Part shown: positions 6,628-63,614 of the stretch, piece after piece
Layout of the letters: every line of letters begins with the position of its first letter
Numbering within the stretch: the stretch's first letter is position 1
Source: an uncultured Bacteroidota bacterium
Lineage (GTDB): Bacteria > CLD3 > SB21
Assembly (NCBI GenBank): GCA_964563165.1
Contig: CAZLWA010000048.1
Location: 10,086 to 74,085, forward strand
Reading direction: 5' to 3'
DNA: 64,000 nucleotides
Translations under genes and position numbers: made by a program
Notes under the pieces: model-generated
What the model was told of the DNA's origin: nothing
Databases searched by the model: none
The model's input: only the letters and a program-made list of their open reading frames with translations

Positions 6628-6671
6628 ATTCTTTTCCCGCAAAACACGCGAAAGGACGCGAAAAATATTTT

Positions 6672-7004: not shown

Positions 7005-7033
7005 CTTATACCAAAGGCCCGATGTTAAAGAGC

Positions 7034-7058
7034 CTTCGTGTCTTGGTGCCTTAGTGGC
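7034..7058. repeat. Family-2 CACGAAG-type repeat, solo half-copy (CCTTCGTGTCTTGGTGCCTTAGTGGC)
   Basis: The same octamer-based motif recurs at 7817-7887, 24421-24502, 41911-41952, 56211-56246 and 63477-63614. Confidence 0.7.
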
Positions 7059-7807: not shown

Positions 7808-7816
7808 CTTTGTTTC

Positions 7817-7887
7817 GCCACCAAGTCACCAAGACACAAAGAGTATTTTGCTTCTTGTTTTCCTTCGTGTCTTGGTGCCTTCGTGGC
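7817..7887. repeat. Family-2 palindromic element. GCCACCAAGTCACCAAGACACAAAG, about 20 nt, then CCTTCGTGTCTTGGTGCCTTCGTGGC.
   Basis: An imperfect inverted pair that fills the 85-bp gap between two same-strand genes. Confidence 0.75.
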
Positions 7888-7892
7888 ATGTT

Positions 7893-23265: not shown

Positions 23266-24441
23266 CTAAAATCCTATTTTTACCAGCGTTCGATCGTATT
23301 TTGAATTGATCGCATCCACTACTTTCAGCAGCCCGTCGCGCTTTTCCGTTTCCAGCAGATCCAGCGTAAGATCCTTTTCGCCGAATTTGGAAACGCCTAA
23401 GCCGATCAACCGGATCGGATCGTGCGCCGTATCGGCTTTTTCCAGCAGCGCCTTCGCTTTCTTGAACAGGACCGCCGGATCGTACGTCGCAGATACGGCC
23501 GCCTGCCGTGTGTGCGTCTCCCAATCGGCGTACCGTAATTTTATGTGAATGCATTGCGCCTTAAGATCATGAGCACGCAAAGCGGCGGAAAGTTTTAGTG
23601 CCATGCCGTGAAGCGTTTCGAATAAAAACTTTTTATCACGTGTGTCTTCGGCAAACGTCACTTCGGCGGAAATTTGTTTTTGTTCACGGCCGGTCGTCAA
23701 CTGCTGAGGGCCTTTTCCCCGCGCAGATTCCTGGATATGTAATCCCCATTTTCCGAAGGTTCGTCCGACCGAGTCGGAATTCATCCCGGCTAAATGTCCG
23801 CAGGTTTGAATATCGTACTCGTTCAAAGATTTCAGCATCACCCTGCCGACCCCGGGCAGTACGTGGACGTTTAGCGGCGCCAGAAATTCAGCTTCTCTCC
23901 CGCTCTCAATTTCTTTCACGCCGAAGGGCTTAGCCTGATCGCATGCAATTTTCGCGGTGATCTTATTGGAAGCAATGCCGATAGCGGAAGGTAATCCGAT
24001 GGTATCCAAAATATCTTTTTGAATCTTACCCGCGAATTGAAACATCGGTTCATGGAACAGTTTCTCACATCCGGTCCAATCAATGTAAAATTCATCCACG
24101 CTCGCCTGTTCAAAGATGGGCGCATAGGGCTTTAAAAACGATTTTACTTTTTCGGAATACTCGTGATACGCTTCGTGGTGGCTGTCAACCCGGATGGCGA
24201 ACGGGCATTTGCGCTGCGCGATGGCGGTGGACATACCTGCGCGTATCCCGTACGGCCGCACTTCGTACGAGGCGCACGTGACGACCCCGCGCTGTTCCGC
24301 TTTGCCCGCAACCATGATCGGTTTACCGGCCAGACCGGGGTTGATCAACCGTTCGACGGAAACGAAAAAAGCCGTGAGGTCGATATGTGCGATTCTCGTG
24401 TTAAGCAAATATCTCTTTCTGCCACGAAGGCACGAAGCCAC
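23266..24441 (-). CDS. dinB: DNA polymerase IV (Y-family). The true start is probably an internal TTG near 24408, because the first roughly 11 codons are translated from a family-2 repeat.
   Basis: IAHIDLTAFFVSVERL and palm/finger motifs of the Y-family. The N-terminus MASCLRGRK overlaps the repeat at 24421-24445. Confidence 0.85.
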   Translation of the reverse strand: MASCLRGRKRYLLNTRIAHIDLTAFFVSVERLINPGLAGKPIMVAGKAEQRGVVTCASYEVRPYGIRAGMSTAIAQRKCPFAIRVDSHHEAYHEYSEKVKSFLKPYAPIFEQASVDEFYIDWTGCEKLFHEPMFQFAGKIQKDILDTIGLPSAIGIASNKITAKIACDQAKPFGVKEIESGREAEFLAPLNVHVLPGVGRVMLKSLNEYDIQTCGHLAGMNSDSVGRTFGKWGLHIQESARGKGPQQLTTGREQKQISAEVTFAEDTRDKKFLFETLHGMALKLSAALRAHDLKAQCIHIKLRYADWETHTRQAAVSATYDPAVLFKKAKALLEKADTAHDPIRLIGLGVSKFGEKDLTLDLLETEKRDGLLKVVDAINSKYDRTLVKIGF

Positions 24442-24502
24442 AAAGTTTCACAAAGGATTTAATTATTTATAGTGGGACTTAGTGCCTTAGTGTCTTTGTG
24501 GC
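24421..24502. repeat. Family-2 palindromic element. GCCACGAAGGCACGAAGCCACAAAG, about 33 nt, then TTAGTGCCTTAGTGTCTTTGTGGC.
   Basis: An inverted pair that fills the dinB/YdeP junction. It contributes spurious terminal residues to both ORFs. Confidence 0.75.
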
Positions 24503-31267: not shown

Positions 31268-32389
31268 CTAAATAACCTGAAACCCGTGGGCATACGGATC
31301 TTCGTCGTCTATGAAAATGGTATTGTGACCGGTAATATAAGCCCAGCCCTCGACACTCGGAATGATCGCTTCATAACTTCCGACCTTGGTCTGCGATTCC
31401 ACGCGCCCGCGAAACATACTGCCGATGATGCTTTCATGAATAAATGTATCCCCGACTTTCAATTTTCCTTTAGCCGCCCACTGCGCCATACGGGCGGAAG
31501 TGCCGGTGCCGCATGGAGAACGGTCTATCGCTTTATCTCCGTAAAACACTGCGTTGCGCGCATGGGCCTCAGAATTGTTCGGTTTGCCCGTCCACTCAAG
31601 ATGCGACAGCCCGCAAATCGTGGAATTTTCCGGATGAACAAATGAATATTTTTCATTCATGCGTTTTCGCACGACCGGGCTCCAGCGCAAAATATCGCCC
31701 GCGGTGATCGACTCGAGCCCCTGATAATTCTTTTGCGGGTCAACGATCGCATAATAATTTCCGCCGTAAGCTACGTCCACGGTGATCATTCCCAGATCAG
31801 GACATTCGATCTCCAACCCGCTGGAATGTAAATAGGAAGGCACATTGACAATACGAACAGATTTAACTTTACTGCCTTCCATCGTGTAATACACTTCCAC
31901 AATTCCGGCCGGGACTTCGAGCCGGAGTTTGCCCGGCGTTTTGGGCGTGACAAGTTTTTCTTCGATCATGACCGTTGCGGTTCCGATCGTGCCGTGCCCG
32001 CACATCGGCAGACAACCGCTGGTCTCGATAAAAAGGATCGCGGCATCAGAATCTTCGCGCGTTGTCGGGTACAAAATGCTTCCCGACATCATATCATGTC
32101 CGCGCGGCTCGAACATCAGCGCGGTGCGGATCCAGTCGTATTCTTTCAGGAAATGCTGACGCCGCTCGCTCATGTTTTTCCCCTCAAGCGAAGGCCCGCC
32201 GCTCGTGACAACACGAACCGGATTCCCGCACGTATGCGCGTCAATACATGAAAATGTTTTCTTTGCCATGGAAGAATATGATAAATTCTTTGGAAAGAAT
32301 CGAGAAAAAATGATCGACAGTTTTCCTTCAAAAGGGGTCGCGTTTTCGTGCCCCTTGGAAAGGGGGTTAGGCGGATTTTTAGTTTGCAC
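31268..32389 (-). CDS. Proline racemase-superfamily enzyme of the Cys/Cys type; predicted 4-hydroxyproline 2-epimerase. The true start is probably ATG at 32269 (MAKKTF…).
   Basis: Catalytic Cys in LPMCGHG and in IDRSPCGTG. The first 40 codons of the tracked ORF (MQTKNPPNPLSKG…) are translated from family-1 repeats. Confidence 0.75.
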   Translation of the reverse strand: MQTKNPPNPLSKGHENATPFEGKLSIIFSRFFPKNLSYSSMAKKTFSCIDAHTCGNPVRVVTSGGPSLEGKNMSERRQHFLKEYDWIRTALMFEPRGHDMMSGSILYPTTREDSDAAILFIETSGCLPMCGHGTIGTATVMIEEKLVTPKTPGKLRLEVPAGIVEVYYTMEGSKVKSVRIVNVPSYLHSSGLEIECPDLGMITVDVAYGGNYYAIVDPQKNYQGLESITAGDILRWSPVVRKRMNEKYSFVHPENSTICGLSHLEWTGKPNNSEAHARNAVFYGDKAIDRSPCGTGTSARMAQWAAKGKLKVGDTFIHESIIGSMFRGRVESQTKVGSYEAIIPSVEGWAYITGHNTIFIDDEDPYAHGFQVI

Positions 32390-32463: not shown

Positions 32464-32658
32464 TAGTATTTTCTTTGAACAAATTCTGCCGTTAATCAAG
32501 AAATTGATTGGTTTGCGGCCTTCGATTTTCTTCCCGGATCAGTAGGAAGACAATGCCCGCACGGCCCAACAGGGAGGCGTGACCGCCGAGATCACGGTCG
32601 TAGCCCCCTTTTAAAGAGCCTGTCCCAAGTTTGTCGAGGAGGATTCGCTGGATTGAGT

Positions 32659-35134: not shown

Positions 35135-35599
35135 TCAAAAAATAAAACTCATACTTGCCGTAATTCCATTGGCAGAAAATGAGATCCAGAATGCTCTTCG
35201 CCAGGATACTTCACACAGCATCCTGATTAGAAGCCATTCGACTAAGACAACACTGACTTCAATTATAAACAGCGACGGGAGATGATGGCCTATCGTTACC
35301 GGCGCGAAGAGATCGATCAAGGACCAATACCCGTGCACCGCGAGCGGCTGCGTGAAGGTATTGACTAAAATGCAATATCCGGCATGCACCAGCGGACGGC
35401 GGTGAAGCCAGATCATCCAAATCGCATACTCCACCGCGACCGTCAATCCCCACGCGATAAGTAAGGTCATATCCACGAGTCTCCTTGTGATACGTGAATT
35501 TTCTTGGCTAAATTTTGAAATTAGAAAAAATGACGCCGGGTCTGAGTCAAGACTTTTTTCTACCTCCTTGGAAAGGGGGTTAGGGGGATTTTTGTGCAT
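35135..35599 (-). CDS. Small membrane protein (the true start is probably 35470, MTLLIAWGL…)
   Basis: A hydrophobic core. The N-terminal 43 codons of the tracked ORF (MHKNPPNPLSK…) come from a repeat and the overlapping DUF559 gene region. Confidence 0.45.
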   Translation of the reverse strand: MHKNPPNPLSKEVEKSLDSDPASFFLISKFSQENSRITRRLVDMTLLIAWGLTVAVEYAIWMIWLHRRPLVHAGYCILVNTFTQPLAVHGYWSLIDLFAPVTIGHHLPSLFIIEVSVVLVEWLLIRMLCEVSWRRAFWISFSANGITASMSFIF

Positions 35600-35979
35600 G
35601 CTTGCACAAATGCCTCGATCGCCTGCAACACGCTATCCGTCTTATTTCGAACTTCGCCTTCTGTAAATCGCAAAACAGTCAATCCCATCGCTTCCAGATC
35701 CCGCTGCCTTGAAATGTCCTTTTCATATACTTCTTTAAGTCCATGACTGTAACCGTCAACCTCGATAACAATCTTCATCGCTTTGCAATAAAAATCAACT
35801 ACATATTTCCCCAGTGGTTTTTGACGATTGAACTGCAGGCCGAAACATTTTCTGCCGCTCAGGTATCTCCAAAGCAGTGCTTCACCCAATGTCGAATTTT
35901 TTCTCAGCTTGCGTGAAACTTTTTTGAGATTCTTGTTATACGGTACGGTCTCCATCAAGATATTTGTTTGTTCGTCCAA
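35560..35979 (-). CDS. DUF559 (Vsr-like, PD-(D/E)xK) endonuclease-domain protein
   Basis: The 139-aa protein has the conserved core YVVDFYCKAMKIVIEVDGYSH…R…VLRF. Its stop lies inside a family-1 repeat, and an inverted repeat copy lies immediately upstream. Confidence 0.75.
   Translation of the reverse strand: MDEQTNILMETVPYNKNLKKVSRKLRKNSTLGEALLWRYLSGRKCFGLQFNRQKPLGKYVVDFYCKAMKIVIEVDGYSHGLKEVYEKDISRQRDLEAMGLTVLRFTEGEVRNKTDSVLQAIEAFVQACTKIPLTPFPRR
35564..35590. repeat. Family-1 repeat copy (CCTCCTTGGAAAGGGGGTTAGGGGGATT) at the 3' end of the DUF559 gene
   Basis: Read from the sequence. Confidence 0.8.
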
Positions 35980-35982
35980 GTA

Positions 35983-36010
35983 ATCCCCCTAACCCCCTTT
36001 TCAAGGGGGA
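35983..36010. repeat. Family-1 repeat copy in inverted orientation (AATCCCCCTAACCCCCTTTTCAAGGGGGA) at the 5' end of the DUF559 gene
   Basis: It is the reverse complement of the consensus CCCCCTTGAAAAGGGGGTTAGGGGGATT. Confidence 0.8.
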
Positions 36011-36014
36011 AAAG

Positions 36015-37475
36015 TCACGGCTGCATATACGTCGTCTTTACCGTTGTATAAAATTCCGCGGCGTAACGCCCCTGCTCACGGCTGCCGTAGCTGGAACCTT
36101 TTCGTCCGCCGAACGGCACGTGATAATCAATGCCCGCCGTCGGCAGATTGATCATCACCATACCTGCTTGCGCGTGCTGTTTGAAATGATGCGCCAATTT
36201 CAATGACGTCGTGCAGATTCCTGAAGTCAATCCGAACGGCGTATCGTTCGCGATTGCCAAAGCTTCGTCATAATTTTTTACGCGGATCACACTCGCGACA
36301 GGCCCGAAAATCTCTTCGCGATTAATTTTCATTTGCGCATGCGTCTCAGTGAATAGCGCAGGCGCCATATAAAATCCTTCTTTATCGCGTTTTAATCGTT
36401 CGCCGCCGAAAACTAATTTTGCATTCTCTTTTTTCCCGATCTCGATATATTCGAGATTCTTTGAAAGCTGATCCTGATCGACCACCGGCCCGATATCCGT
36501 TCCTTTTGCAAGCGCATCGTCAATTCTAAGAACTTTTAATTTTTCAACAACCGCTTTAACAAAATGATCGTGAATGCCTTCCGTTACAATTAGCCGGCTC
36601 GATGCCGTGCAGCGCTGGCCGGTCTGGAAGAAAGCGCCTTGTACCGCACAATTCACCGCGACTTCCAGATCCGCGTCATCTACGATCACCAGCGGATTTT
36701 TTCCTCCCATTTCCAATTGGACTTTTCCCATACGTTGCGCGCATTGGGCGGCAATTTTCCTTCCGACCTCGACACTGCCCGTAAAGCTTACTCCGGCAAT
36801 GTCCGCATGATTGACCATCGCCTGTCCGGCCGTTTCTCCCCGGCCCATGACCAAATTGAATATCCCTTTCGGCAAACCCGATCGGGAAATAATCTCGGCC
36901 AGCGCCCAGGCGCATCCCGGAGCAAGTTCCGCCGGTTTCAAGATCACCGCATTCCCGAACGCCAAAGCCGGTGCCGTTTTCCAGGCAGGTATCGCCATCG
37001 GAAAATTCCATGGGGTCAGGAGCCCGACCACACCGATGGGTTCGCGTACGACATCCACAATAACATTGGGACGGACGGACGGCTGATAATCGCCGGAATT
37101 GCGCAGCGCTTCGCCCGCAAAAAATTTAAAGATATTTCCCGCGCGGTTAACTTCCCCGATCCCCTCGGGCAAAGTTTTTCCTTCTTCCCGGGAAAGCAAT
37201 TTTCCTAATTCATCCTGCCGTGCCAGAATTTCCGTTCCGATAAAATCCAAAATATTGAATCGCTGCTGCGGGGTGCTCTGCGCCCAACCCGGAAATGCGG
37301 ACCGGGCGGACTTCACCGCCGTGTCGACATGCGATGCATTGCCTTCGGCATACTCGCCGACCACATCGTGAATATCCGAAGGATTGATATCCGGCTGCAC
37401 AGCCGAACCGTCAATCCATTCCCCGTTGATGAATAATTTTTTTGTTTCCATTCGAATCCCTTCATGGTTTTGCAA
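36015..37475 (-). CDS. NAD(P)-dependent aldehyde dehydrogenase; candidate alpha-ketoglutarate semialdehyde dehydrogenase
   Basis: 486-aa ALDH fold with catalytic Cys in QRCTASSR and Glu in LEMGGKNP. Confidence 0.8.
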   Translation of the reverse strand: MQNHEGIRMETKKLFINGEWIDGSAVQPDINPSDIHDVVGEYAEGNASHVDTAVKSARSAFPGWAQSTPQQRFNILDFIGTEILARQDELGKLLSREEGKTLPEGIGEVNRAGNIFKFFAGEALRNSGDYQPSVRPNVIVDVVREPIGVVGLLTPWNFPMAIPAWKTAPALAFGNAVILKPAELAPGCAWALAEIISRSGLPKGIFNLVMGRGETAGQAMVNHADIAGVSFTGSVEVGRKIAAQCAQRMGKVQLEMGGKNPLVIVDDADLEVAVNCAVQGAFFQTGQRCTASSRLIVTEGIHDHFVKAVVEKLKVLRIDDALAKGTDIGPVVDQDQLSKNLEYIEIGKKENAKLVFGGERLKRDKEGFYMAPALFTETHAQMKINREEIFGPVASVIRVKNYDEALAIANDTPFGLTSGICTTSLKLAHHFKQHAQAGMVMINLPTAGIDYHVPFGGRKGSSYGSREQGRYAAEFYTTVKTTYMQP

Positions 37476-37538: not shown

Positions 37539-38561
37539 CTATAGTACAGGCCTGGTCGCCAAAGCTTTTTTCACAATTTCTTCAACTTGTTTTCTTTCCT
37601 CGCCGATCAACGGCAGACGCGGCGCGCGCACCGTTTCCGAACCCACGCCCACCAGGGCTTCCACGAGTTTAATATTTTGCACGAACTTAATGGATACATC
37701 CAAATGCAGCAGCGGCATGAACCAGCGATACAGTTTCACCGCTTCCTCAGTTCGATTGGTTTTCACCAATTGATACAAGGCAACCGTTTCTTTCGGAAAA
37801 GCGCACACCAAACCCGCGAGCCAACCCGACGCGCCAAGAATTAAACTTTCCATCGCCAGATCGTCAACACCGGAAAAAATCTGATAACGATTACCGACCT
37901 GATTGATAATGTCGGTCAAGCGCCGGATATTGTCCGAGGATTCCTTGATAGCAACAAATTTCGGCTCATCGGCTAATTCCGCAAACATATCCGGCGTAAT
38001 ATCCACGCGATACGCGACCGGATTATTGTAGATCATGATAGGCCGATCCGTCGCCGCAGCCACCGCCCGCAGATGCGCGATCGTTTCACGCCGGTCAGAA
38101 ACGTATTGCATCCCGGGCAGAACCATAAAACCGTCCGCGCCCAACTTCGCAGCGTTTTCAGTAAATTTACATGCGCCGGCCGTGGTCGTTTCCGCCACGC
38201 AGGACAAGACCGGAACTTTTCCTTTCGCAGCGCCGACCGCGGTTTTCAGCACATCCAATTTTTCTTCGGCCGTCAGCGTCCCGTTCTCTCCGAGCGAACC
38301 CAGCATGACTAATCCGTTTACGCCGGCATCCAATTGAAATTGGATATGCTTCTCGATCGCCGGAAAATCGATCGAGTAATCTTTTTTGAATTTCGTCGTC
38401 AACGCGGGAAAGATCCCGCTCCAATTTGTTTTCATTTTCAAATCCTTTTGTGTTATGCGCGCATAGAATCCCCCGCCGGAGCCTGCCCTGAGCAGGTCCT
38501 TCGTTTCGCTCAGGATAAACTTCGGAGCGCCCCCTTTAATCCCCCCCGCCGGAGCCTGCAC
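37539..38561 (-). CDS. Dihydrodipicolinate synthase-family lyase; candidate delta1-pyrroline-4-hydroxy-2-carboxylate deaminase. The true start is probably 38435.
   Basis: DapA/NAL-family Schiff-base lysine in VAIKESS and GxxGE motifs. The first 42 codons (MQAPAGGIKGG…) are translated from a family-1 repeat. Confidence 0.75.
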   Translation of the reverse strand: MQAPAGGIKGGAPKFILSETKDLLRAGSGGGFYARITQKDLKMKTNWSGIFPALTTKFKKDYSIDFPAIEKHIQFQLDAGVNGLVMLGSLGENGTLTAEEKLDVLKTAVGAAKGKVPVLSCVAETTTAGACKFTENAAKLGADGFMVLPGMQYVSDRRETIAHLRAVAAATDRPIMIYNNPVAYRVDITPDMFAELADEPKFVAIKESSDNIRRLTDIINQVGNRYQIFSGVDDLAMESLILGASGWLAGLVCAFPKETVALYQLVKTNRTEEAVKLYRWFMPLLHLDVSIKFVQNIKLVEALVGVGSETVRAPRLPLIGEERKQVEEIVKKALATRPVL

Positions 38562-38613
38562 TGAGCATCGCGAAGTGGCGCCCCCCTTTATTAAAGGGGG
38601 GTTCGGGGGGATT
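38467..38613. repeat. Family-1 long-variant repeat cluster (AATCCCCCGCCGGAGCCTG…CTTTATTAAAGGGGGGTTCGGGGGGATT)
   Basis: Termini AATCCCCC and GGGGGGATT, with internal hairpins CCTGAGC…GCTCAGG and CCCCCCTTTATTAAAGGGGGG. Confidence 0.8.
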
Positions 38614-39184
38614 AAGTCTTCGGAAAATCCATCATCTCATACATCCGTTTTGCCTGAAGGATGTGCCGCCGTTCATGCGCCATCATGATCGAAAAACTTT
38701 CGCCCAAACTGATCCGGATCAGTTTACTCAGGGGAGATGTGAGTTTGATTTCCGCGAGGTCAAGACCGTTCGCGCGTTTCATGAGTGCCAGCAATTGCCG
38801 CTGATGTTCGGCAAAATCGTTCAGTACAATTTTCCCTTCCGTACGATTCGACGGCTGAAAACTTTTCGGCGCTTTGAATTTGAAAAATCCGTCCGGCTTG
38901 ACAAATAACATATAGAATTTTCCCATCCAACTGGCGCGATACGGTTTTTCATCTGTTGCTTGTTTGGCCGCCGGTTCGTCCATAGCCCTTTTGATCCCGG
39001 TAAAATATTGCTGGTCGGTTACGATCACGTGGTCGAGGCACTGCGCAATGCTCCACGTATGTTCGTTCGGTTTCCAATTTAATTGCGTGTCGCTGAGCGT
39101 AGAAAAAAATGTTGTGATTTCCTCCAACACCGCTTCCGCCTCTTTGGTCAGTTGATTCAGATGCGAACTAGACAGCTCTGCCAT
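38612..39184 (-). CDS. DinB/YfiT-like (DinB_2) metal-dependent four-helix-bundle protein
   Basis: Conserved His positions: CLDHV, MMAHERRHILQ. Confidence 0.65.
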   Translation of the reverse strand: MAELSSSHLNQLTKEAEAVLEEITTFFSTLSDTQLNWKPNEHTWSIAQCLDHVIVTDQQYFTGIKRAMDEPAAKQATDEKPYRASWMGKFYMLFVKPDGFFKFKAPKSFQPSNRTEGKIVLNDFAEHQRQLLALMKRANGLDLAEIKLTSPLSKLIRISLGESFSIMMAHERRHILQAKRMYEMMDFPKT

Positions 39185-45706: not shown

Positions 45707-45853
45707 TAATCCCTTTTAATCCCCGCCGGAACCTGACCTGAGTTCTTCCACTTCACTCAGGATAAACTCCGTCGAAAGGGCACCCACCTTTGGTAAAGGA
45801 GGGACATGGGAATTCGGTTTTCTGCCCCCTTGAAAAGGGGGTTAGGGGGATTT
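45707..45853. repeat. Family-1 repeat cluster (long variant plus canonical copy)
   Basis: AATCCCTTTTAATCCCCGCCGGAACCTGACCTGAG…GCCCCCTTGAAAAGGGGGTTAGGGGGATT. Confidence 0.8.
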
Positions 45854-46768: not shown

Positions 46769-46944
46769 TCTGTTTTCTTCCCCCTTGAAAAGGGGGTTAG
46801 GGGGATTATTTCCCGTCGGAGCTTGTCCTGGGCGCAGACGAAGGGGCGCCCTAAGAATCCCCCCGCTTCGCTCGCCCCCTTTAGTAAAGGGGGCTGATAA
46901 GATTCTGTTTTCTTCCCCCTTGAAAAGGGGGTTAGGGGGATTTC
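46769..46944. repeat. Two canonical family-1 copies (46769-46806 and 46906-46944) flanking a GC-rich variant segment
   Basis: TTCTTCCCCCTTGAAAAGGGGGTTAGGGGGATT occurs twice. Confidence 0.85.
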
Positions 46945-46958
46945 TTTTTCACTACTTG

Positions 46959-47225
46959 TTAATCATAATGAGTCCACATGCGCAAAATTTTCACGAAATG
47001 AATTTCTTTCAGAACCTGGTAAACAATGCGGTGTTGAATATTGATCCTGCGGGAGTAAGCTCCTAAGAGATCTCCCACGAGTTTTTCATAAGGCGGCGAA
47101 TTTCGGAATGGATTTTCTTCTAATATATCTAAAATGGATTCTGATTTGGGTTTCAAACCTGCTGCCGCCAGTTTTTTGGCGTCTTTCTGAGCTTGTTTGG
47201 TAAAACCAAGCCGCCATCTTACCAC
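46959..47225 (-). CDS. yoeB: YoeB/Txe-family type II toxin (mRNA interferase)
   Basis: 88 aa with C-terminal YSRRINIQHRIVYQV…HY that matches the YoeB signature. It overlaps the upstream antitoxin gene. Confidence 0.8.
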   Translation of the reverse strand: MVRWRLGFTKQAQKDAKKLAAAGLKPKSESILDILEENPFRNSPPYEKLVGDLLGAYSRRINIQHRIVYQVLKEIHFVKILRMWTHYD

Positions 47226-47455
47226 TTCAATTTCCTTGAGAGCTTCTGGACCGGAGTTTTCATGCCTTGCACGATAGATTTTTTCATACCCGGAATGGAG
47301 ATCAAAAACAATGTTTCCTGGATCGCGCGCCAGTCTTCTTCGGAAATGATCACGGCATTGCCGTGTTTGCCGGTGACGTAGATCGGCTCATTCGATACGT
47401 CATCGATCAGGTTGTATATGTTTTGACGAACTTTGCTGACGGTTAATGTTTTCAT
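47219..47455 (-). CDS. yefM: YefM/Phd-family antitoxin
   Basis: 78 aa: MKTLTVSKVRQNIYNLIDDVSNEPIYVTGKHGNAVIISEEDWRAIQETL. Confidence 0.8.
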   Translation of the reverse strand: MKTLTVSKVRQNIYNLIDDVSNEPIYVTGKHGNAVIISEEDWRAIQETLFLISIPGMKKSIVQGMKTPVQKLSRKLKW

Positions 47456-47542
47456 AATAAGTTCTTGCTTTCAGAAACGTACGTAATTACGTACGTAATA
47501 GCAAGTGAAAAAAAACCGAGACTAAGGAATTTCGGTTTTATT

Positions 47543-47716
47543 CCCCCTTGAAAAGAGCCTGTCCCGAGCTTGGCGAGGGAGGGTTAGGGGGATTATTACC
47601 CGCCTGAGCCAGCCTTGAGCGCAGCCGAAGGAGCGCCCCCCTTTGGTAAAGGGGGGACTTGGTAACAGACGATTTCTGAATTCCCCCCTTTATTAAAGGG
47701 GGGGTTCGGGGGGATT
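47543..47716. repeat. Composite family-1 repeat. It is a canonical copy with the CCTGAGC-type motif inserted into its hairpin loop, plus a long-variant copy.
   Basis: CCCCCTTGAAAAG-AGCCTGTCCCGAGCTTGGCGAGG-GAGGGTTAGGGGGATT … CCCCCCTTTGGTAAAGGGGGG…CCCCCCTTTATTAAAGGGGGGTTCGGGGGGATT. Confidence 0.8.
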
Positions 47717-48150
47717 CTTTTCTCGACTTCACTTTCGATCATCTTACAAACACCGTCAAATTCATGCAGCACTTCGTAATTGGTAAATCTCAAAACCTTC
47801 AATTTGTAAGCCTCAAGCACTTTCGTGCGGCCTTTGTCATAATCTTTTCCGTCGTCCGTATAATGGCTATCGCCATCCACTTCAATCACCAATTTCAGTT
47901 TAGCACAATAAAAATCTACAATATAATGATCGATGGGCTTTTGTCTCAGAACGGGAAATTTTAAATGCTTTAAAAAGCCATGCCAGAGTTTCTTCTCCGC
48001 CCGTGTCATGGTTCTCCTGAGAGTCCGCGCACGCTCCTTAAGCTTAGGATTGAAAGGCAAGTGATGGCCGGTGGTAATGAGGCCTTTGGCTTTGGCGTCG
48101 TTTTTCATTTCATAGGTTCCCTTTTTTAATCCCCCCGGCGGAGCCTGCAC
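47596..48150 (-). CDS. DUF559 (Vsr-like) endonuclease-domain protein. The core gene is about 47720-48105. Both termini of the tracked ORF are translated repeats.
   Basis: Core HYIVDFYCAKLKLVIEVDGDSH…VLRFTNYEV. The C-terminal tail PPNPPFNKGG… and the N-terminal MQAPPGGLKKG come from family-1 repeats. Confidence 0.75.
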   Translation of the reverse strand: MQAPPGGLKKGTYEMKNDAKAKGLITTGHHLPFNPKLKERARTLRRTMTRAEKKLWHGFLKHLKFPVLRQKPIDHYIVDFYCAKLKLVIEVDGDSHYTDDGKDYDKGRTKVLEAYKLKVLRFTNYEVLHEFDGVCKMIESEVEKRIPPNPPFNKGGNSEIVCYQVPPLPKGGAPSAALKAGSGG

Positions 48151-48246
48151 TGAGCATCGCGAAGTGGCGCCCCCCTTTGGTAAAGGGGGGACTTGGTAAC
48201 AGACGATTTCTGAATTCCCCTTTATTAAAGGGGGGTTCGGGGGGAT
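48128..48246. repeat. Family-1 long-variant copy (AATCCCCCCGGCGGAGCCTGCACTGAGC…GGGGGGTTCGGGGGGATT)
   Basis: About 95% identical to the copies at 47637-47716 and 48519-48597. Confidence 0.85.
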
Positions 48247-48273
48247 TCTCTTGGAGCACTCGAGGAGACCATC

Positions 48274-48462: not shown

Positions 48463-48497
48463 GCGTTCTCCTTAAAATGATATGCTGCCCCTCCCAA

Positions 48498-48597
48498 AAT
48501 CCCCCGCCTTCGGCGCCCCCCTTTGGTAAAGGGGGGACTTGGTAACAGACGATTTCTGAATTCCCCCCTTTTATTAAAGGGGGGTTCGGGGGGATTC
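48498..48597. repeat. Family-1 long-variant copy
   Basis: AATCCCCCGCCTTCGGCGCCCCCCTTTGGTAAAGGGGGGACTTGGTAACAGACGATTTCTGAATTCCCCCCTTTTATTAAAGGGGGGTTCGGGGGGATT. Confidence 0.85.
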
Positions 48598-49040
48598 TCC
48601 TGAGCGAGCGAAGCGAGTCGCAGGAGTCATTCCCACGAACGCGGGAATCTATTTCACATCCTCAAATCAGGCTAATTAGAGATTTTATTCCATTCTTTGA
48701 TGCGTCTGATCGCTTCACTAATTTGTTTTTCCAAATCTAATTGTCCAACTAGGTTTTGTTTCGTCAAGAACTTTGAAATTTTTGCGGCGAACAAAACTTT
48801 GTTTTGGAGAAACTTACTGCCTTCGTCTTTCCTGAATTATTTCTTCCAATAATAATATTAATAGGTAATATCGAATCAAATCCATGTTCAACTTCCTTGA
48901 AACATTTATGGTGTTTTAATTTTGATTGATGTCTTGTCTAACATTACTGATCTCTTCCAAATGCGAAAAAAGGCACAAAACCTTCCCATTTTCGGGACGT
49001 CTTGTGCCTTAAATTAAAATTACTTTTCTAATTCAGCTTT

Positions 49041-49156
49041 GCGTCCCCCTGACGCGGAAAATCCCCCGCCTTCGCGGAGCCTGTCCTGAGCGATAGCGAA
49101 GGGCTCAGGCCGCCCCCTTTATTAAAGGGGGCAAGCGCCGAAGGTGCTGGGGGATT
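49041..49156. repeat. Family-1 long-variant copy abutting the nrdJ stop
   Basis: AAAATCCCCCGCCTTCGCGGAGCCTGTCCTGAGCGATAGCGAAGGGCTCAGGCCGCCCCCTTTATTAAAGGGGGCAAG…GGGGGATT. Confidence 0.8.
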
Positions 49157-52100
49157 CTACGAGCACCCCATGCTATTCCCGCAGTTCAGGCATTTGTAGC
49201 ATGCGCCGTTGCGCACGGTCATATGCCCGCACACGTCGCACGCGGGTGCGTCGCCCATCATCTCGCTCAGATGTTTATCGAGTAAATTCTGCGAAGTTTC
49301 TTTCGGGGTCTCCGCGGGCGTATGGTCCACGACCGTCGGCGTAGCCGGGTCGTGCGATTCGCCGTTGAGCGTCGGCGGAATGTGAACGAAATCCATGCGC
49401 TTGAGATATTCCATGCCGAGCACGCGGAAAATAAAATCCAGTATCGAGGTCGCGTTTTTGATGTTCGGGTGATTCGTAAATCCGCTCGGCTCGAAGCGCG
49501 TGAATGTGAATTTCTCCACGAATTTGTCCAGCGGCACGCCGTACTGCAGTCCCATTGAGACCGCGACGGCAAAACAGTTGAGTAAACTGCGGTAGGCTGC
49601 GCCTTCTTTGAACATATCGATGAAGATCTCGCCGATCTGGTTGTCATCGTATTCTCCGGTGCGGAAATAAATTTTATGTCCGCCCATTTCGACTTCCTGC
49701 GTGAATCCCTGCCGTTTGTGCGGCATCGGTTTTTTCTGCCCGCGGCGTAATTCTCTGCCGGACTTTTCGATCGCGTCCTGAACGGCTTTATCCAATTGCG
49801 CTTGCGTGATCGTCATCTCGTCTTCGACCGATTCTTTGGAGGACGATTTATTGCTGAGCGGCTGGGAGAATTTCGATCCGTCGCGGTAGAGCGCCACGGC
49901 TTTGAGCCCGAGCTTCCAGCCTTCGAAATAAATGCGCTCGATATCTTTTACGGTCGCTTCCGAAGGAATATTTACCGTTTTGGAGATCGCACCGGAGAGG
50001 AACGGCTGAACCGCACCCATCATCTTCACGTGCCCCATCGGGTCGATGTAGCGTTTGCCGATACCGCATTTATTCGCGCAGTCGAACACCGCGAGATGTT
50101 CTTCTTTCATTAAGTGAGTTCCTTCCACGGTCTGCGCGCCGGCGATATAGATCACCGCGCGTGAGATCTGTTCACCGGAAAGGCCTTTTTGCTTCAGCGT
50201 CTTGATATTGATATGCGGCGTCCATTCGTCCAGCGATTTATTTTTATTGACGTAAGCTTCGGCTTCGGCAATTTCAGGATCCGTGAAACCCATTTGTTTC
50301 AGTTGTTCCGGATTCACATAGGGCGCACCGTCGAATGTGCCGTGGCCGAGAATGTATTTGATGATACCGTCGATCTCTTCTTTATTATATCCTAATTTGC
50401 CGAGCGATTGCGGAATGGAGCCGTTGACGATCTTGAAATATCCGCCGCCGGCTAATTTTTTCCATTTCACCAAAGAGAATTCCGGTTCGACGCCGGTCGT
50501 GTCGCAATCCATCAAAAGCCCGATCGTTCCCGTTGGGGCAAGCACCGTCGCCTGCGCATTGCGGTAACCGAACTGGCCGCCCATGGCCACGCAGGCGTCC
50601 CAGTCTTCGCGCGCCGCACGGACCAGGTCGTCCGGGCAAAATTCGTTACTGATTTTATAAGCCGCATCGCGGTGTTTGTTCATCACGCGCATCATCGGTT
50701 TTTCATTTTTCTTGTAGCCGGGAAAAGCGCCTTTGACGGAAGCCACCTCCGCGGAACCGCGGAATCCCCACGCATGCATGATCGCGGTGATCGCGCCGGC
50801 CCACGCTCTGCCTTCTTCGGAATCGTACGGAATGCCGTTGACCATCAATAGGGTCCCTAAATTCGCATAACCCAATCCGAGCGGGCGGTAATCGTGGCTG
50901 TTCTGCGCAATTTTCTGGGTCGGGTAGGAAGACATGTCCACGAGAATTTCCTGCGCGATAATGAACACGCGGCAGGCTTCGCGGAATCCTGCGATATCGA
51001 ATTTGCCGGATTCATCGGAACATTTCATCAAATTGACCGACGCGAGATTGCAGGCGGTATCGTCGAGGAACATATATTCCGAGCAGGGATTCGACGCGTG
51101 AATCTTGTCGGTCGACGGGCAGGTGTGCCAGTCATTGATCGTGTCGTCGAATTGAATGCCGGGATCGGCGCATGCCCATGCGGCGTAAGAAATTTGATCG
51201 AACAGATCGCGCGCTTTGTAGGTATCGATGACTTCGCCGGAAGTGCGCGACGTGGTTTTCCATTCGCCGTCGTCGAGAACGGCGTTCATGAATTTATCGG
51301 AAACGCGGACCGAGTTGTTGGAGTTTTGTCCGGAGACGGTTTGGTACGCTTCGCCGTTGAAATCGCTGTCGTATCCGGCGTCGATGAGGGCTTTGACTTT
51401 CTTTTCTTCTTTCACTTTCCAATTGATGAAATCCACGATCTCCGGGTGGTCCATATCGAGGCAGACCATTTTCGCCGCACGGCGCGTGGTGCCGCCGGAT
51501 TTGGTCGCACCCGCTCCGCGGTCCAGAACGCTCAGGAACGACATGAGGCCCGAGGACGTTCCTCCGCCGGAAAGTTTTTCCTGTTTGCCGCGCAAAGATG
51601 AAAAATTGCTGCCCGTGCCGGAACCGTATTTGAAAAGCCGGGCTTCGTTCTTGGCCAATTCAAAAATGCCCATCAGGTCGTCACTCACCGCCTGAATGAA
51701 GCACGCCGAGCATTGCGGATGTGAATACGAATCGGGGGTCATTTCGATGTTGCCTGTTTTAGGATTCCAAAAATAATTTCCGCCCGAACCTTCGATATGA
51801 TATTCCTGGGAAAGGCCGCAATTGAACCAGACCGGCGAATTGAATGCGCCCATTTGATTGACTAGCAGATGCGTGAGTTCCATTTCAAAGATCTCGGCAT
51901 CGTTCTTCGAATCGAAGTATCCTAATTTTTCACCTTCCGCCCGGATCGTATGCGCGACGCGATAGACCAATTGTTTGGCGCTCGTTTCATTGCCGGTTCC
52001 AGGTACTCCCGCTTTGCGGAAATATTTGGAGGCTGCGATGTCCGTAGCCAATTGCGACCAGCTTTTGGGGATATCGAGGTCCTTCATTTCGAAAACAACT

Positions 52101-53579: not shown

Positions 53580-53674
53580 TACATGTTTCCCCACGAAACA
53601 CACGAAAAAGGCACGAAAAATTTTAATGCAAAATACAAGTGATTGCCCGCGAAATACGCGAAACATGCGAAAAA
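53580..53674. repeat. Family-2 repeat array in CACGAAA orientation upstream of the GxxExxY gene
   Basis: CCCCACGAAACACACGAAAAAGGCACGAAAAA … TTGCCCGCGAAATACGCGAAACATGCGAAAAA. Confidence 0.8.
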
Positions 53675-54085
53675 ATGAATACAAAAAATATTGTCTTTGC
53701 TGAAGAAAGCTACAAAATCCTCGGGGCATGTTTCAATGTTTACAAAGCGAAAGGGTGCGGATTTTTAGAGGCAGTCTATCATGAATGCCTGCAAATAGAA
53801 TTTGAATTTCAGAAAATTCCTTTTGTATCCCAGAAGGAACTGGCAATAGAATATCGAGATCGGCTACTCAAACAAAACTACAAAGCCGATTTTATTTGTT
53901 TTGACAAGATCATCGTTGAAATAAAGGCGGCTTCCAAAATAATCGATGAACACCGGGCACAGGTATTGAATTATGTTAATGCGACAAATTCTAAACTCGG
54001 CATTTTGGTCAATTTCGGACATTATCCTAAATTGGAATACGAACGGTTTGCGTTGACTGAAAAAAAAGTTACAAAAACAGTTTAA
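53639..54085 (+). CDS. GxxExxY-family protein (PD-(D/E)xK-like). The true start is probably ATG at 53675.
   Basis: GCGFLEAVYHECLQIEF (the GxxExxY motif) and DFICFDKIIVEIK (a PD-(D/E)xK core). It is inserted between sdhC and sdhA and bracketed by inverted repeat arrays. Confidence 0.75.
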   Translation: MIAREIRETCEKMNTKNIVFAEESYKILGACFNVYKAKGCGFLEAVYHECLQIEFEFQKIPFVSQKELAIEYRDRLLKQNYKADFICFDKIIVEIKAASKIIDEHRAQVLNYVNATNSKLGILVNFGHYPKLEYERFALTEKKVTKTV

Positions 54086-54289
54086 AAACTTTTGCGCCTT
54101 TTCGCGTGTTTCGCGGGCAAATAGTTTCTGTGTTTCGTGGGAAAAAGTTTTCGCGTGTTTGGCGGTTTAATAGTTTTCGTGTCTTTTCGTGTTTTTCGTG
54201 GGAAAAGTTTTCGCGTATTTCGCGGGCTAAGTTTTTTTCGTGTCTTTCGTGGGGAAGTATTCTGCGGGCAAGCATAAGGAGAATGATAA
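54086..54289. repeat. Tandem array of about 7 copies of a degenerate 25-bp unit (GTTTTCGCGTGTTTCGCGGGCAAAT) in TTCGTG orientation
   Basis: Contiguous units are visible: GTTTTCGCGTGTTTCGCGGGCAAATA / GTTTCTGTGTTTCGTGGGAAAAA / GTTTTCGCGTGTTTGGCGGTTTAATA / GTTTTCGTGTCTTTTCGTGTTTTTCGTGGGAAAA / GTTTTCGCGTATTTCGCGGGCTAA / GTTTTTTTCGTGTCTTTCGTGGGGAA. Confidence 0.85.
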
Positions 54290-56203
54290 ATGAAACTAGA
54301 TTCAAAGATCCCGTCCGGGCCGTTAGCCGATAAATGGGACAAACATAAATTCGATATCAAATTGGTCAACCCGGCCAACAAACGGAAATACACTATAATA
54401 GTAGTCGGGACCGGGTTGGCCGGCGGATCTGCGGCGGCGAGCCTGGCGGAATTAGGCTACAACGTTTTGAGTTTTTGCATTCAGGATTCGCCGCGCCGTG
54501 CGCACAGCATCGCCGCCCAAGGCGGCATCAACGCCGCCAAGAATTACCCTAACGACGGCGACAGCGTGTGGAGGTTATTTTACGATACCATCAAAGGCGG
54601 CGATTACCGTTCCCGTGAAGCCAATGTCTATCGCCTCGCACAGCTGAGCACCAACATCATCGATCAATGCGTCGCCCAGGGCGTTCCGTTCGCCCGCGAG
54701 TACGGCGGACAATTGGACAACCGGTCCTTCGGCGGTGCGCAGGTATCGCGCACCTTTTACGCGCGCGGGCAAACCGGCCAGCAGCTTTTACTCGGGGCAT
54801 ACAGTTCGCTGATGCGCCAGGTGGATACGGGCCGCGTCAAGTTATTTCCCCGCCGGGAAATGCTGGATCTTGTTATCGCCGGCGGCAAAGCGCGCGGTAT
54901 TGTCGCCCGAAATCTCGTCGACGGCACCATCGAATCCTATGCCGCGGATGCGGTCATACTGGCTACCGGCGGTTACGGTAACGCATACTATCTTTCGACC
55001 AACGCAAAAAATTCGAATGTCACCGCCGCATGGCGCTGCTACAAGCGCGGTGCACTGTTTGCCAATCCGTGCTTCACGCAAATTCACCCGACGTGCATCC
55101 CGGTTTCCGGCGATCACCAGGCGAAGCTCACCTTGATGAGCGAAAGCCTGCGCAACGACGGACGTGTATGGGTTCCGAAAAATAAAGGCGACCGGCGCCC
55201 GCCGGAACAAATTCCGGAAGAAGACCGCGATTATTATCTCGAAAGAAAATATCCGAGCTTCGGCAATCTCGTTCCGAGGGACGTGGCTTCCCGTAATGCG
55301 AAAGCGGTGTGCGACGAAGGCCGCGGTGCGGGCGATTCGGGCTTGTCCGTATATTTGGATTTTCGCGACGCCCTTAAACGCGTCGGAGAACATTCGATCA
55401 AAGAAAAATACGGCAACCTCTTCGATATGTATCAACGCATCACGGATGAGGACCCGTACCACGTTCCGATGCGCATTTATCCGGCGATCCACTATACGAT
55501 GGGCGGCTTGTGGGTGGATTATAATCTGATGAGCACGATTCCCGGACTGCATGTATTAGGCGAGGCGAATTTCTCCGACCACGGTGCGAACCGCCTCGGC
55601 GCGAGCGCACTCATGCAGGGTTTGGCGGACGGTTACTTCGTGATCCCCTATACGATCGGTCATTATCTGGCAACTGCCGATCTTCCTAAGATCGATACGG
55701 ATCAAAAAGAATTCAAAACAGTTGCCGAGGAAGTGAAAACGAAAACCGCAAAAATGCTTGCCATCAAAGGCAAAAAGACTGTTACGGAATTCCATCGCAG
55801 CATCGGAAAATTGTTGTGGGATTATGTCGGTATGGCACGGAATGAAAAAGGATTGAAAAAAGTGATTAAAGAAATTCCGAAATTACGCGAAGAGTTCTGG
55901 CAGAACGTTTCGATTCCTGCGGACGGCGATTCGCTGAACAAGAATCTGGAATTTGCCGGGCGCGTTGCCGATTTTCTGGAATTGGGTGAATTGATGGCGC
56001 GGGATGCACTGAACCGCAAAGAATCGTGCGGCGGGCATTTCCGCGAGGAATATCAAACTCCGGACGGCGAAGCGAAACGCGACGACACCAATTTTTCATA
56101 CATTGCCGCGTGGGAATATGCCGGCGATAAAAAGGAACCGGTTTTGAATAAAGAAAAACTGGAATTCGAGAACGTTCATTTGAGTCAACGCAGTTATAAG
56201 TAA
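54290..56203 (+). CDS. sdhA: Succinate dehydrogenase/fumarate reductase flavoprotein subunit
   Basis: FAD-binding motif [15 protein letters not shown], a covalent-FAD His region (HSIAAQGG) and 637 aa. Confidence 0.9.
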
Positions 56204-56210
56204 TTGGGCG

Positions 56211-56246
56211 GCCACAAAGGCACGAAGGCACAAAATATTTTGTAGA
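56211..56246. repeat. Family-2 repeat fragment between sdhA and sdhB (GCCACAAAGGCACGAAGGCACAAAATATTTTGTA)
   Basis: Read from the sequence. Confidence 0.65.
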
Positions 56247-63476: not shown

Positions 63477-63614
63477 TTGCCCGCGAAACATGTGAAAAAA
63501 AACAGAAAACAAATTTTGCCGCTAAGACACAAAGTTTTAGTGTTTAAGAAACCTTAGCGTCTTGGAGTCTTAGGGGTTATGAATTTGTTGTTTCTTCGCT
63601 TTTTTCGCGGGCAG
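63477..63614. repeat. Family-2 gene-less inverted pair (TTGCCCGCGAAACATGTGAAAAAAAAC … TTCGCTTTTTTCGCGGGCAG) enclosing about 90 bp with ACACAAAG and CTTAGCGTCTTGG motifs
   Basis: The termini match those that bracket the GxxExxY gene. Confidence 0.7.

Follow-up and report, generated by a model that had tools for sequence, protein, structure and literature searches.

Inverted BoxC/PIT/TM-like repeats frame DUF559 nuclease genes in several bacterial phyla and suggest a RAYT-like partnership of nuclease and repeat

In the REP/REPIN-RAYT systems, an enzyme gene is flanked by inverted hairpin repeats, and hundreds of gene-less copies of the repeat, including doublets, are dispersed in the intergenic regions of the same genome. 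The RAYT gene is usually present in a single copy and is positionally stable, and every RAYT clade goes with a repeat family of its own. The enzymes are Y1 HUH transposases, which cut and rejoin single-stranded DNA, and their repeats carry a GTAG tag. The literature on these systems reportedly includes the work of Nunvar in 2010, Bertels and Rainey in 2011 and Ton-Hoang in 2012. Here we describe a small nuclease gene of the DUF559 family lying between two inverted copies of a dispersed repeat in a 64,000-nucleotide (nt) stretch of DNA from an uncultured Bacteroidota bacterium (contig CAZLWA010000048.1). The whole stretch is called the window, and all window positions are 1-based within it. The repeat class and the DUF559 family were each known, and the new part appears to be their association. 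A search of the mostly open literature on DUF559/COG2852/PF04480, ycjD, and Vsr-like nucleases with repeats or triplexes found no prior link, which at that scope is not proof; it agrees with the preliminary description of this DNA, whose author knew of no such role for DUF559. The closest pointers in that literature were a statistical enrichment of DUF559 among predicted inversion targets and the negative statement of Holder et al. on mobility genes, both given below.

The second relevant system is the BoxC/PIT/TM class of repeats. BoxC was first noted in 1992 (Bergler, envM/fabI paper), PIT elements were described in 2000 (Hoyne & Maher 2000, 2002) and TM (TMECO) motifs in 2015 (PMC4666352). 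Like the repeat of the window, they are intergenic, multi-copy and sometimes arranged as inverted pairs, and the BoxC class is widespread in Enterobacteria and Cyanobacteria. Holder et al. counted 23 TM copies in E. coli MG1655 and a total of 3610 across 262 proteobacterial genomes, and found related G/C-rich motifs to be abundant in cyanobacteria (Holder et al. 2015, PMC4666352). A TM oligonucleotide formed a stable triplex in vitro, loci bearing the motif were more often rearranged between strains, and no enzyme or mobility gene associated with the motifs was found in that study, which also cites the blocking of DNA polymerase by PIT elements in vitro (PMC4666352).

The nuclease gene of the window and its two repeat copies are located as follows.

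35560..35979, minus strand: DUF559 (Vsr-like PD-(D/E)xK) nuclease open reading frame (ORF), called gene 1; 139 amino acids (aa), Pfam PF04480
35563..35590, plus strand: repeat arm 3' of gene 1, with a degenerate C-arm CCTCCTT, the loop GGA, the G-arm AAGGGGG, the loop TTA and the tail GGGGGATT directed toward the gene
35982..36009, minus strand: repeat arm 5' of gene 1, reading CCCCCTTGAAAAGGGGG-TTA-GGGGGATT on the minus strand

The arms (35563-35590 / 35982-36009) form an inverted repeat of 28 nt with 93% complementarity and 391 nt between them. The arrangement of a nuclease gene between inverted repeat copies, as seen in the preliminary description, was thereby retained, with its coordinates corrected by one base. 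The arm at 35982-36009 is 100% complementary to a unit at 45825-45852, has a 7-bp stem with a GAA loop, and carries a tail that fits the triad mirror rule given below. It is the sole inverted copy in the window, the other 10 of 11 hairpin+tail copies being located on the plus strand. For the arm at 35563-35590, a weak hairpin was predicted (-2.9 kcal/mol, z -0.44). Outwards, this arm is prolonged by GACTTTT (35551-35557) and the right arm by AAAAGTC (36010-36016), the latter overlapping the stop codon (36015-36017) of an aldehyde dehydrogenase gene (36015..37475). The stop codon of gene 1 (35560-35562) had been thought to lie inside the repeat together with the starts of neighbouring ORFs. It sits one base beyond the 28-nt arm, the last ~9 codons of the gene (KIPLTPFPRR) do come from the repeat, and the ORFs in question (35135..35599 and 35964..36206) are probably mechanical ORFs and not genes. 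The real start of gene 1 is probably the ATG at 35955, because homologues begin M..PYNK, and the coding sequence of the unit is predicted to encode a DUF559 nuclease of ~125 aa with an EDxHD-type PD-(D/E)xK site.

The preliminary description had read the repeat as a GC hairpin, which overlooked the relation of the tail to the stem. The tail is not merely a part of the hairpin; it mirrors the G-arm, so that a G faces each G and an A or T faces each A (AAGGGGG/GGGGGAT, AGAGGGG/GGGGTGT and GGAGGGG/GGGGTGG). Purine-motif triads were fully satisfied by the tail in 88% of 204 distinct units versus 1.7% with shuffled tails, and the loop between the G-arm and the tail was most often 3 nt long (104 units). 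The order of C-arm, loop, G-arm, ~3-nt loop (TTA) and mirror tail corresponds to the anatomy of the BoxC/PIT/TM elements, and an intrastrand triplex is predicted on this basis. The window repeat represents another sequence family of the same class. Its stem has 7 nt (CCCCCTT/AAGGGGG/GGGGGAT) as against 9 nt in the TMECO consensus, and that consensus, CCCTCNCCC-N3-6-GGGNGAGGG-N3-GGGNGAGGG, is not matched by the window form CCCCCTT-GAA-AAGGGGG-TTA-GGGGGATT. It also differs in that a DUF559 gene lies between two of its copies, whereas the published TM motifs have no associated enzyme gene. The scan of Rfam over 31-50 kb of the window gave zero matches at E<=1. An intrinsic terminator was considered and rejected, as no T-runs followed the hairpins and 2 terminator-like sites were found versus 1.7 expected from shuffles.

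The gene 1 protein matched PF04480 over nearly the full length of the ORF (E=8.5e-32, 109.7 bits, cutoff 20.6) and consists essentially of the nuclease domain alone; only PF04480 and PF18741 were detected by Pfam in the DUF559 proteins of the window. An AlphaFold (AF2) model of this protein (pLDDT 84.3, pTM 0.77) was aligned by Foldseek to 3HRL (TMt 0.90), I-Bth0305I (0.79), Vsr (1vsr, prob 1.0) and the nuclease domains of PvuRts1I and AbaSI. The profile of 57 homologues likewise found PDB 3HRL (N. gonorrhoeae NGO0050, E=1.6e-28) and the catalytic domain of I-Bth0305I (E=5e-4). The Vsr-like PD-(D/E)xK fold proposed for DUF559 in the preliminary description was thus supported, and Vsr, DUF559 and DUF2726 have been classed together with these structures (PMC3424549). 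Residues D62, E73, D75, H79 and D88 were invariant in the 57 sequences (D...ExD...H...D pattern) and are assigned by analogy as the putative catalytic residues. Fold and residues resemble those of an active Vsr/EDxHD nuclease, and endonuclease activity is predicted from the model.

Judged from alignments and model, the nearest characterised relative is the homing endonuclease I-Bth0305I. The EDxHD homing endonucleases share the Vsr-like fold and are likewise selfish nuclease genes whose insertion is framed by their own target (PMC3239194). I-Bth0305I, encoded inside a group I intron of a phage recA gene, possesses an additional region for DNA binding (PMC3239194), whereas the DUF559 protein described here is free-standing, consists of the domain only and is framed by a dispersed repeat instead of the halves of a unique target. 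YcjD of E. coli and NGO0050 (PDB 3HRL) belong to the same DUF559 family, and both are without a characterised function.

The protein search returned 1466 relatives, and 80 loci with 40-70% identity were fetched from Bacteroidota, Cyanobacteria, Nitrospirae, Calditrichota, Ignavibacteria, Patescibacteria and proteobacterial metagenome-assembled genomes (MAGs). Nearly all of them, read in the coding orientation, showed a C-rich hairpin with a G-tail, 0-40 nt, the ATG to stop of the gene, and a C-tail with a hairpin. The arm sequences varied from lineage to lineage, as exemplified by CCCCTCTTGAGAGGGG-TTA-GGGGTGTGT, CCCCTCCTCGGAGGGG-TTA-GGGGTGGGTT and CCCTCCCCTGGGAGGG-TGTA-GGGAGGGGTTT, and a hairpin unit was detected on at least one side of the DUF559 gene in 76 of the 80 loci (about 95%). 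An inverted-repeat score was obtained by local alignment of the upstream flank with the reverse complement of the downstream flank. It reached at least 30 for 69% of 75 DUF559 genes; of the 940 other ORFs in these loci, which served as controls, 1.7% did so. The corresponding figures for a score of at least 40 were 47% and 0.4%, and the top-scoring "control" (L077 4793-5158) turned out to be another DUF559 gene, a paralogue with its own type of repeat. Among 301 perfect hairpin units in the 1.2 Mb scanned, 138 (46%) were located within ~130 nt of a DUF559 ORF, that is, in ~2% of the sequence. Their tails were directed toward the gene, with 38 units of hairpin-tail (HT) order versus 6 of tail-hairpin (TH) order upstream, and 43 TH versus 7 HT downstream. 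The check proposed at the outset, whether DUF559 genes are consistently flanked by inverted hairpin repeats, therefore gave a positive answer in this subfamily. The repeats also reach into the reading frames: the C-termini of homologues are often NPPNPL, IPLTPF or SP-stop, which are three frames of AATCCCCCTAACCCCCTT, and some N-termini (KRGPGGL) represent the reverse strand of the repeat. Such repeat-encoded tails (NPPNPL, IPLTPF, KRGLGG) contaminate DUF559 gene models.

The tails were sorted into the types GATT, TGTGT, TGGGT, AGGGGT, GTTGT and GATG. For 65 of 73 proteins, the nearest protein neighbour shared the tail type, versus 25.7 expected (permutation p<=2e-4). The proteins of Nostoc L062 and Pontibacter L079, both with TGGGT arms, are 71% identical, the two paralogues of one Pontibacter locus (L077/L077b, TGTGT versus GATG arms) are 55% identical, and a single MAG holds both GATT-type and GTTGT-type DUF559 genes. 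The tail type tracks the protein clade and not host taxonomy, which gives no explanation of it because Nostoc and Pontibacter share a type and paralogues of the same genome differ.

The data establish a conserved, oriented and co-varying association of a minimal Vsr-like nuclease gene with triplex-motif repeats. This is likely a RAYT/REP-like partnership of nuclease and repeat with a different enzyme fold, whose mechanism we infer. The whole of this reading, in which a ~125-aa DUF559 endonuclease gene framed by two inverted hairpin+G-tail elements is a minimal module comparable with RAYT and the nuclease acts on its arms, is given a probability of about 0.5. The wider proposal, that nucleases of the DUF559/YcjD type are the partner that the BoxC/PIT/TM repeats have lacked, cutting their cognate arms so that repair spreads the repeats, is advanced only tentatively. 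In both readings, each nuclease would recognise and nick or cut its cognate arm, possibly in a folded hairpin or triplex (H-DNA) form, and host recombination or replication restart would repair the breaks using other repeat copies as templates. Such repair could keep the repeats uniform while spreading them, copy the gene unit now and then, and give rise to the rearrangements at the motifs. The gene would behave as RAYT genes do, being usually present in one copy per repeat type, stable in the short term and exchanged between lineages together with its arms in the long term.

The likeness to RAYT consists in a gene that is flanked by an inverted dispersed repeat, is single-copy and stable, and is accompanied by many gene-less repeats; some genomes hold several divergent DUF559 paralogues, each with its own repeat. 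The differences concern the enzyme, which is hydrolytic, has no joining chemistry and is not a Y1 HUH protein (Pfam PF04480 and PF18741 only), and the repeat, which has a mirror-repeat tail where REP has a tetranucleotide (GTAG) tag. The DUF559 unit is RAYT/REPIN-like in its working and not a member of the RAYT/REPIN class. With miniature inverted-repeat transposable elements (MITEs) and their parents it shares terminal inverted repeats, and in one MAG (L033, see below) short derivatives that keep the ends and part of the ORF; it differs in having no DDE or other transposase. The parallel to REP/RAYT or MITE/parent pairs drawn in the preliminary description is apt because of the framing, the co-variation with clade and the gene-less derivatives. 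It stops short of a demonstrated mobility of the gene and does not extend to cut-and-rejoin chemistry, as a hydrolytic PD-(D/E)xK nuclease alone cannot do what RAYT or DDE transposases do. The unit is not a demonstrated transposon or homing element.

Gene-less copies of the repeat were found in several forms. Of the tail-to-tail (HT->TH) neighbour pairs, 31 had a gap of 351-650 nt, which is as long as a DUF559 gene, and a further 10 were gene-less doublets with 41-150 nt between the units. In the Bacteroidales MAG L033, a stretch of 9 kb holds 27 arms, several doublets of ~175 nt and a pair of DUF559 genes that are ~90% identical. Between the same arms, these doublets contain the first ~85 nt of the ORF and a further ~45 nt, and because the 5' end of the ORF is kept, they are regarded as internal-deletion derivatives of the gene unit. 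Scanning metagenome contigs with a window-type 18-mer gave 129 copies, most of which stood alone, formed long palindromes or head-to-head composites, or were paired tail to tail across spacers of 55-75 nt, which confirmed that copies without a gene are numerous. The gene is nearly always found with the repeat and the repeat rarely with the gene, which is the same relation as that of RAYT genes and REP elements. As a separate observation, four metagenome contigs, partly from the human gut (L097, L112, L123 and L158), share a ~100-nt sequence (…GGCGATGGAAAGCCCG.AGGCCCTGATGTGCCCCCTTGAAAAGGGGGTTAGGGGGATTGAGA.AAGC…) around a hairpin+tail unit, which could be a conserved locus or a motif-bearing structured RNA.

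The sole DUF559 gene of E. coli K-12 is ycjD, located between sapF and fabI, and its product is 42% identical to the window protein (E=3e-28). Downstream of ycjD, a degenerate motif covers the stop codon and is followed by a duplicated fragment of the ycjD 3' end, then GGGTTAGGGG, and by the complete motif CCCCTCGCCCCTCTGGGGAGAGGGTTAGGGTGAGGGG; the upstream boundary is the terminator hairpin of sapF. Because fabI is the former envM and BoxC was discovered in the envM sequence paper, the founding BoxC copy was presumably the one beside ycjD. Among 5426 complete E. coli genomes, 3378 carried the gene, as a single copy, and it was absent from 38%, where the eefRABCD efflux operon occupied the site. 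These counts agree with its reported occurrence in phylogroups A, B1 and C plus ST69 and ST182 (PMC12817139). Motif copies were counted with a chimeric query (ycjD and motif core) in an evenly spaced sample of 59 E. coli genomes, giving a median of 20 in ycjD+ genomes (12-30, n=37) versus 12.5 in ycjD- genomes (1-22, n=22; Mann-Whitney p=1.3e-7). The correlation of repeat number with DUF559 expected in the preliminary description is thus seen in its direction, and the difference is confounded by phylogroup.

Regarding the site itself, the sapF-fabI interval contains either a ~650-nt segment with ycjD and the motifs or the 7.5-kb eefRABCD operon (L224 K-12 5163-5420; L225/L227 uropathogenic strain 536). 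The fabI-side breakpoint lies ~40 nt from the complete triplex motif, and the sapF terminator hairpin is common to both alleles and overlaps the GTG start of ycjD in K-12.

A number of observations weigh against the partnership. Cutting of the cognate arms by the nuclease is a prediction of the analysis. In the metagenome scan, only 5 of the 109 copies that could be evaluated had a DUF559 gene next to their tail, and 1 of 105 had one next to the head. In E. coli, the ycjD motifs occur on one side of the gene only, the gene keeps a single locus, the copy-number difference carries the phylogroup confounding mentioned above, and ycjD- genomes keep up to 22 copies; abundance of the repeat in genomes lacking DUF559, which the preliminary description had held to speak against its proposal, was thus in part observed. 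As the ycjD segment alternates with the eef operon, it does not provide a clean empty site. The spacers between the units of L033 are also repeated, which indicates a local array, and segmental or local duplication may have made these derivatives rather than transposition.

The exact proteins P0044 (24 contigs) and P0011 (12 contigs) always had the same neighbours and orientation, and no near-identical gene copies at unlinked sites were found for these two proteins. Recent transposition of the gene, considered as a candidate, was rejected on these look-ups, which gave one context each. Several DUF559 positions are conserved between genera, upstream of the same ubiA-like gene (L015, L058 and L059) and upstream of an rsmI-like gene (L004 and L007). 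Because the exact proteins keep their neighbours and positions are conserved between genera, the DUF559 gene evidently stays in place in the short term. The search for a clean empty site of the window locus found none, the closest aldehyde dehydrogenase relatives being 77-80% identical with different downstream genes; where the window has its repeat, these relatives have a solo element of a different type, which is uninformative on insertion. No unambiguous target-site duplication was found at the doublets and loci compared, and a TA at the ends of the doublets could equally be an extension of the repeat. The preliminary idea of a candidate selfish-element unit gained no support for mobility from these comparisons, and only the sharing of gene and arm types across phyla and the L033 array point to movement.

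Concerning the aldehyde dehydrogenase gene, in one ~79% relative (L085 7437-7500) the same stop codon is followed by a solo tail-hairpin-tail element of another type (AACCCCA...CCCTCCCCTTGGCAAGGGGAGGG...GGGTGGGGTT), and in another (L083 7437-8048) by an element and an insert of 540 nt in which other hairpins abound. Elements thus recurrently land or are retained at the 3' end of the aldehyde dehydrogenase gene. The exact aldehyde dehydrogenase was present in only two Logan contigs, and the short-read assemblies stop inside the downstream repeat (L081 2565-2598; L082 1716-1749); these repeats fragment short-read assemblies.

The main rival explanation is that DUF559 is cargo. The repeats would spread by DUF559-independent means, small accessory genes (DUF559, toxin-antitoxin pairs, hydrolases) would be captured and exchanged between repeat copies, and the co-variation would reflect co-transfer only. 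The remaining repeats of the window are described here before the evidence. The 16-mer AATCCCCCTAACCCCC (up to 2 mismatches) occurs in 7 copies versus 0.04 expected, and 0 of 100 shuffles gave 7. The pattern scan of the window revealed 11 tail motifs and 26 C-run/G-run hairpins, 15 of which are perfect hairpin units, in about ten intergenic clusters. The elements concerned, with the second nuclease gene, are as follows.

47596..48108, minus strand: second DUF559 gene (gene 2, a paralogue); PF04480 E=1.5e-29, domain at ~47722-48060
47595..47716, plus strand: composite repeat 3' of gene 2, with two C6/G6 hairpins and the tail GTTCGGGGGGATT; another unit precedes it at 47540-47594
48128..48247, plus strand: composite repeat 5' of gene 2, starting with AATCCCCCC and ending with GGGGGGATT; one long hairpin closed by these ends
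48497..48598, plus strand: composite repeat, third copy, 95% to the reference copy
49062..49157, plus strand: composite repeat abutting the stop codon of a class II ribonucleotide reductase gene
45719..45852, plus strand: gene-less composite repeat with a terminal perfect hairpin+tail unit at 45825-45852
46780..46942, plus strand: two perfect hairpin+tail units (46780-46807, 46915-46942) with an extra hairpin between them, located between a hydrolase gene and a toxin-antitoxin pair
38467..38613, plus strand: gene-less composite repeat between the DHDPS and DinB_2 genes; fold z -3.62
32351..32377, plus strand: variant hairpin+tail copy (GGGTTAGGCGGATT), with a degenerate copy at 32437-32464

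Genes 1 and 2 are 42.6% identical (tblastn), and no further DUF559 copies or GIY-YIG genes were found in the window. The gene 2 ORF continues through two repeats before its stop at 47596, and the element at 48128-48247 has a predicted fold of -29.9 kcal/mol (z -4.37), equalled by 0 of 200 shuffles. Common to both loci is the gene-proximal bracket, in which ...GGGGG(G)ATT precedes the gene and AATCCCCC(C)... follows it, the same on either strand. The frame of gene 2 consists of direct copies of a ~120-nt self-complementary composite element and not of a simple inverted pair. The claim of the same architecture at 47543-48246 could therefore be kept for the gene-proximal bracket and not beyond it, because gene 2 sits between direct copies. 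The tail of the element at 38467-38613 overlaps the stop codon of the DinB_2 gene (38612-38614).

In the array at 45.7-49.2 kb, these elements also stand between other genes, namely the hydrolase gene, a YoeB/ParE-Phd/YefM pair and a 62-aa ORF, an arrangement that counts against a special bond with DUF559 and is well explained by cargo. The cargo explanation is also in line with ~95% of repeat copies having no adjoining DUF559, with the copies kept by ycjD- E. coli, and with a single E. coli site holding either the ycjD-motif segment or the eef operon. It is hard to reconcile with the ~40-fold specificity for DUF559 and the arms particular to each paralogue. Only 1.7% of the 940 control ORFs were framed by repeats, the exceptions being small nuclease or four-helix-bundle genes with repeats of their own. 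The arms abut the ORF at conserved distances and even supply stop codons, they stay near-identical within a unit while the proteins diverge to about 50% identity, and paralogues in the same genome keep their own arm types. On balance, we consider the cargo explanation unlikely.

Two further features of the array were noted. The YoeB/ParE-type toxin (46959-47225) and Phd/YefM antitoxin (47219-47455) genes lie in this repeat-rich region (window 46959-47455 within 45.7-49.2 kb), where every small gene is separated by repeat elements in a cassette-like manner. An integron cassette array, in which small genes alternate with ~100-nt repeats, was rejected as a candidate: the ends AATCCCCC/GGGGGATT are unlike the attC cores RYYYAAC/GTTRRRY, the CCCTAAC/GTTAGGG of the elements misses the attC core by one base, and no IntI or other integrase was detected among the 20 window ORFs scanned. 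In addition, the hairpin+tail units are joined to members of a second repeat family (GGAGCCTGYCCTGAGC...GCTCAGG) in composites closed by AATCCCCCC/GGGGGGATT stems. This second family is present at 38470-38567, 45720-45744, 46810-46834, 47555-47621, 48132-48156, 49068-49092 and 32598-32645, and resembles the repeats flanking GIY-YIG genes in other loci.

Slightly more doubtful still is host maintenance, in which DUF559 would be a domesticated repair or processing nuclease removing or resolving hairpins or triplexes, for example at stalled forks, and its own sites would serve autoregulation and the limiting of repeats. Stable residence at a single locus among housekeeping genes, the positions conserved across genera at the ubiA-like and rsmI-like genes, the kinship with Vsr and the block to DNA polymerase caused by PIT elements in vitro (PMC4666352) would suit such a role. 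However, ycjD+ E. coli have more motif copies, not fewer, and ycjD is dispensable in 38% of E. coli genomes. The distribution of the units is patchy and they appear to have been transferred across phyla, and truncated derivatives of the gene proliferate in L033, all of which speaks against a maintenance function.

It is very improbable that the arms drive a programmed inversion of the nuclease gene as a phase-variation switch. The idea draws on a 14-fold enrichment (odds ratio 14.3) of DUF559 domain-containing proteins among genes with predicted inversion-type inverted repeats in an independent survey (PMC9881135), an enrichment that also counts in favour of the partnership of nuclease and repeat, and the arms are indeed inverted repeats of 28-35 nt around the whole gene. 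However, all 36 contigs with P0044 or P0011 showed one orientation, no recombinase gene was found beside the units among the window ORFs scanned, and inversion leaves hundreds of gene-less copies and the mirror-symmetric tail unaccounted for; programmed inversion was rejected on these grounds. A coincidental accumulation of generic REP-like or terminator hairpins in short intergenic regions, although stop codons of ordinary genes, at 38612 and 49157, likewise have a repeat directly beside them, can be dismissed in view of the about 40-fold enrichment beside DUF559 (69% versus 1.7%; 46% of hairpin units in ~2% of sequence), the orientation of tails toward the gene, the co-variation of arm type with protein clade, the lack of a U-tract terminator signature and the lack of an excess of terminator-like sites over shuffles.

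Repeats around other genes were also recorded in the loci fetched. Small GIY-YIG nuclease genes (~107-110 aa; L039 15837-16160 and L060 4147-4479) are flanked by inverted repeats of other families (GTCCTGAGCTTGTCGAAGG... and TCTCGACTGCGCTCGA...), and the layout of a small nuclease gene between its own inverted repeats may extend beyond DUF559. Genes of ~110-160 aa judged by eye to encode four-helix-bundle proteins similar to the 23S rRNA intervening-sequence protein (L070 7992-8324; L051 2417-2779; L010 9031-9384; L078 18699-19190) have inverted flanks of a short tandem type, such as TCATTGGGTCATTGGG. In the window, an unrelated dispersed family, GCCACGAAGGCACGAAGCCACAAA and its complement, is located at 7027-7062, 7813-7888, 24420-24502, 56211-56234 and 63552-63577, and TTTCGCGTGTTTCGCGG / CGCGAAACA.. 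repeats occur in direct and inverted orientation at 53587-54256 (around ORFs 53639-54393) and at 6626-6663.

BoxC/PIT/TM repeats are abundant in hundreds of genomes and linked to rearrangement, and for three decades have had no partner enzyme, while DUF559 is a very large family with no assigned function that includes E. coli YcjD and the solved structure 3HRL. Linking the repeat and the nuclease would give both orphans a candidate partner. If true, this would represent a second enzyme class, unrelated to RAYT, maintaining a genome-wide population of short structured repeats, and a new class of selfish or domesticated element composed of a PD-(D/E)xK nuclease and triplex-forming terminal repeats. 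E. coli K-12 makes the question testable, since ycjD lies beside such motifs and is naturally absent from 38% of strains.

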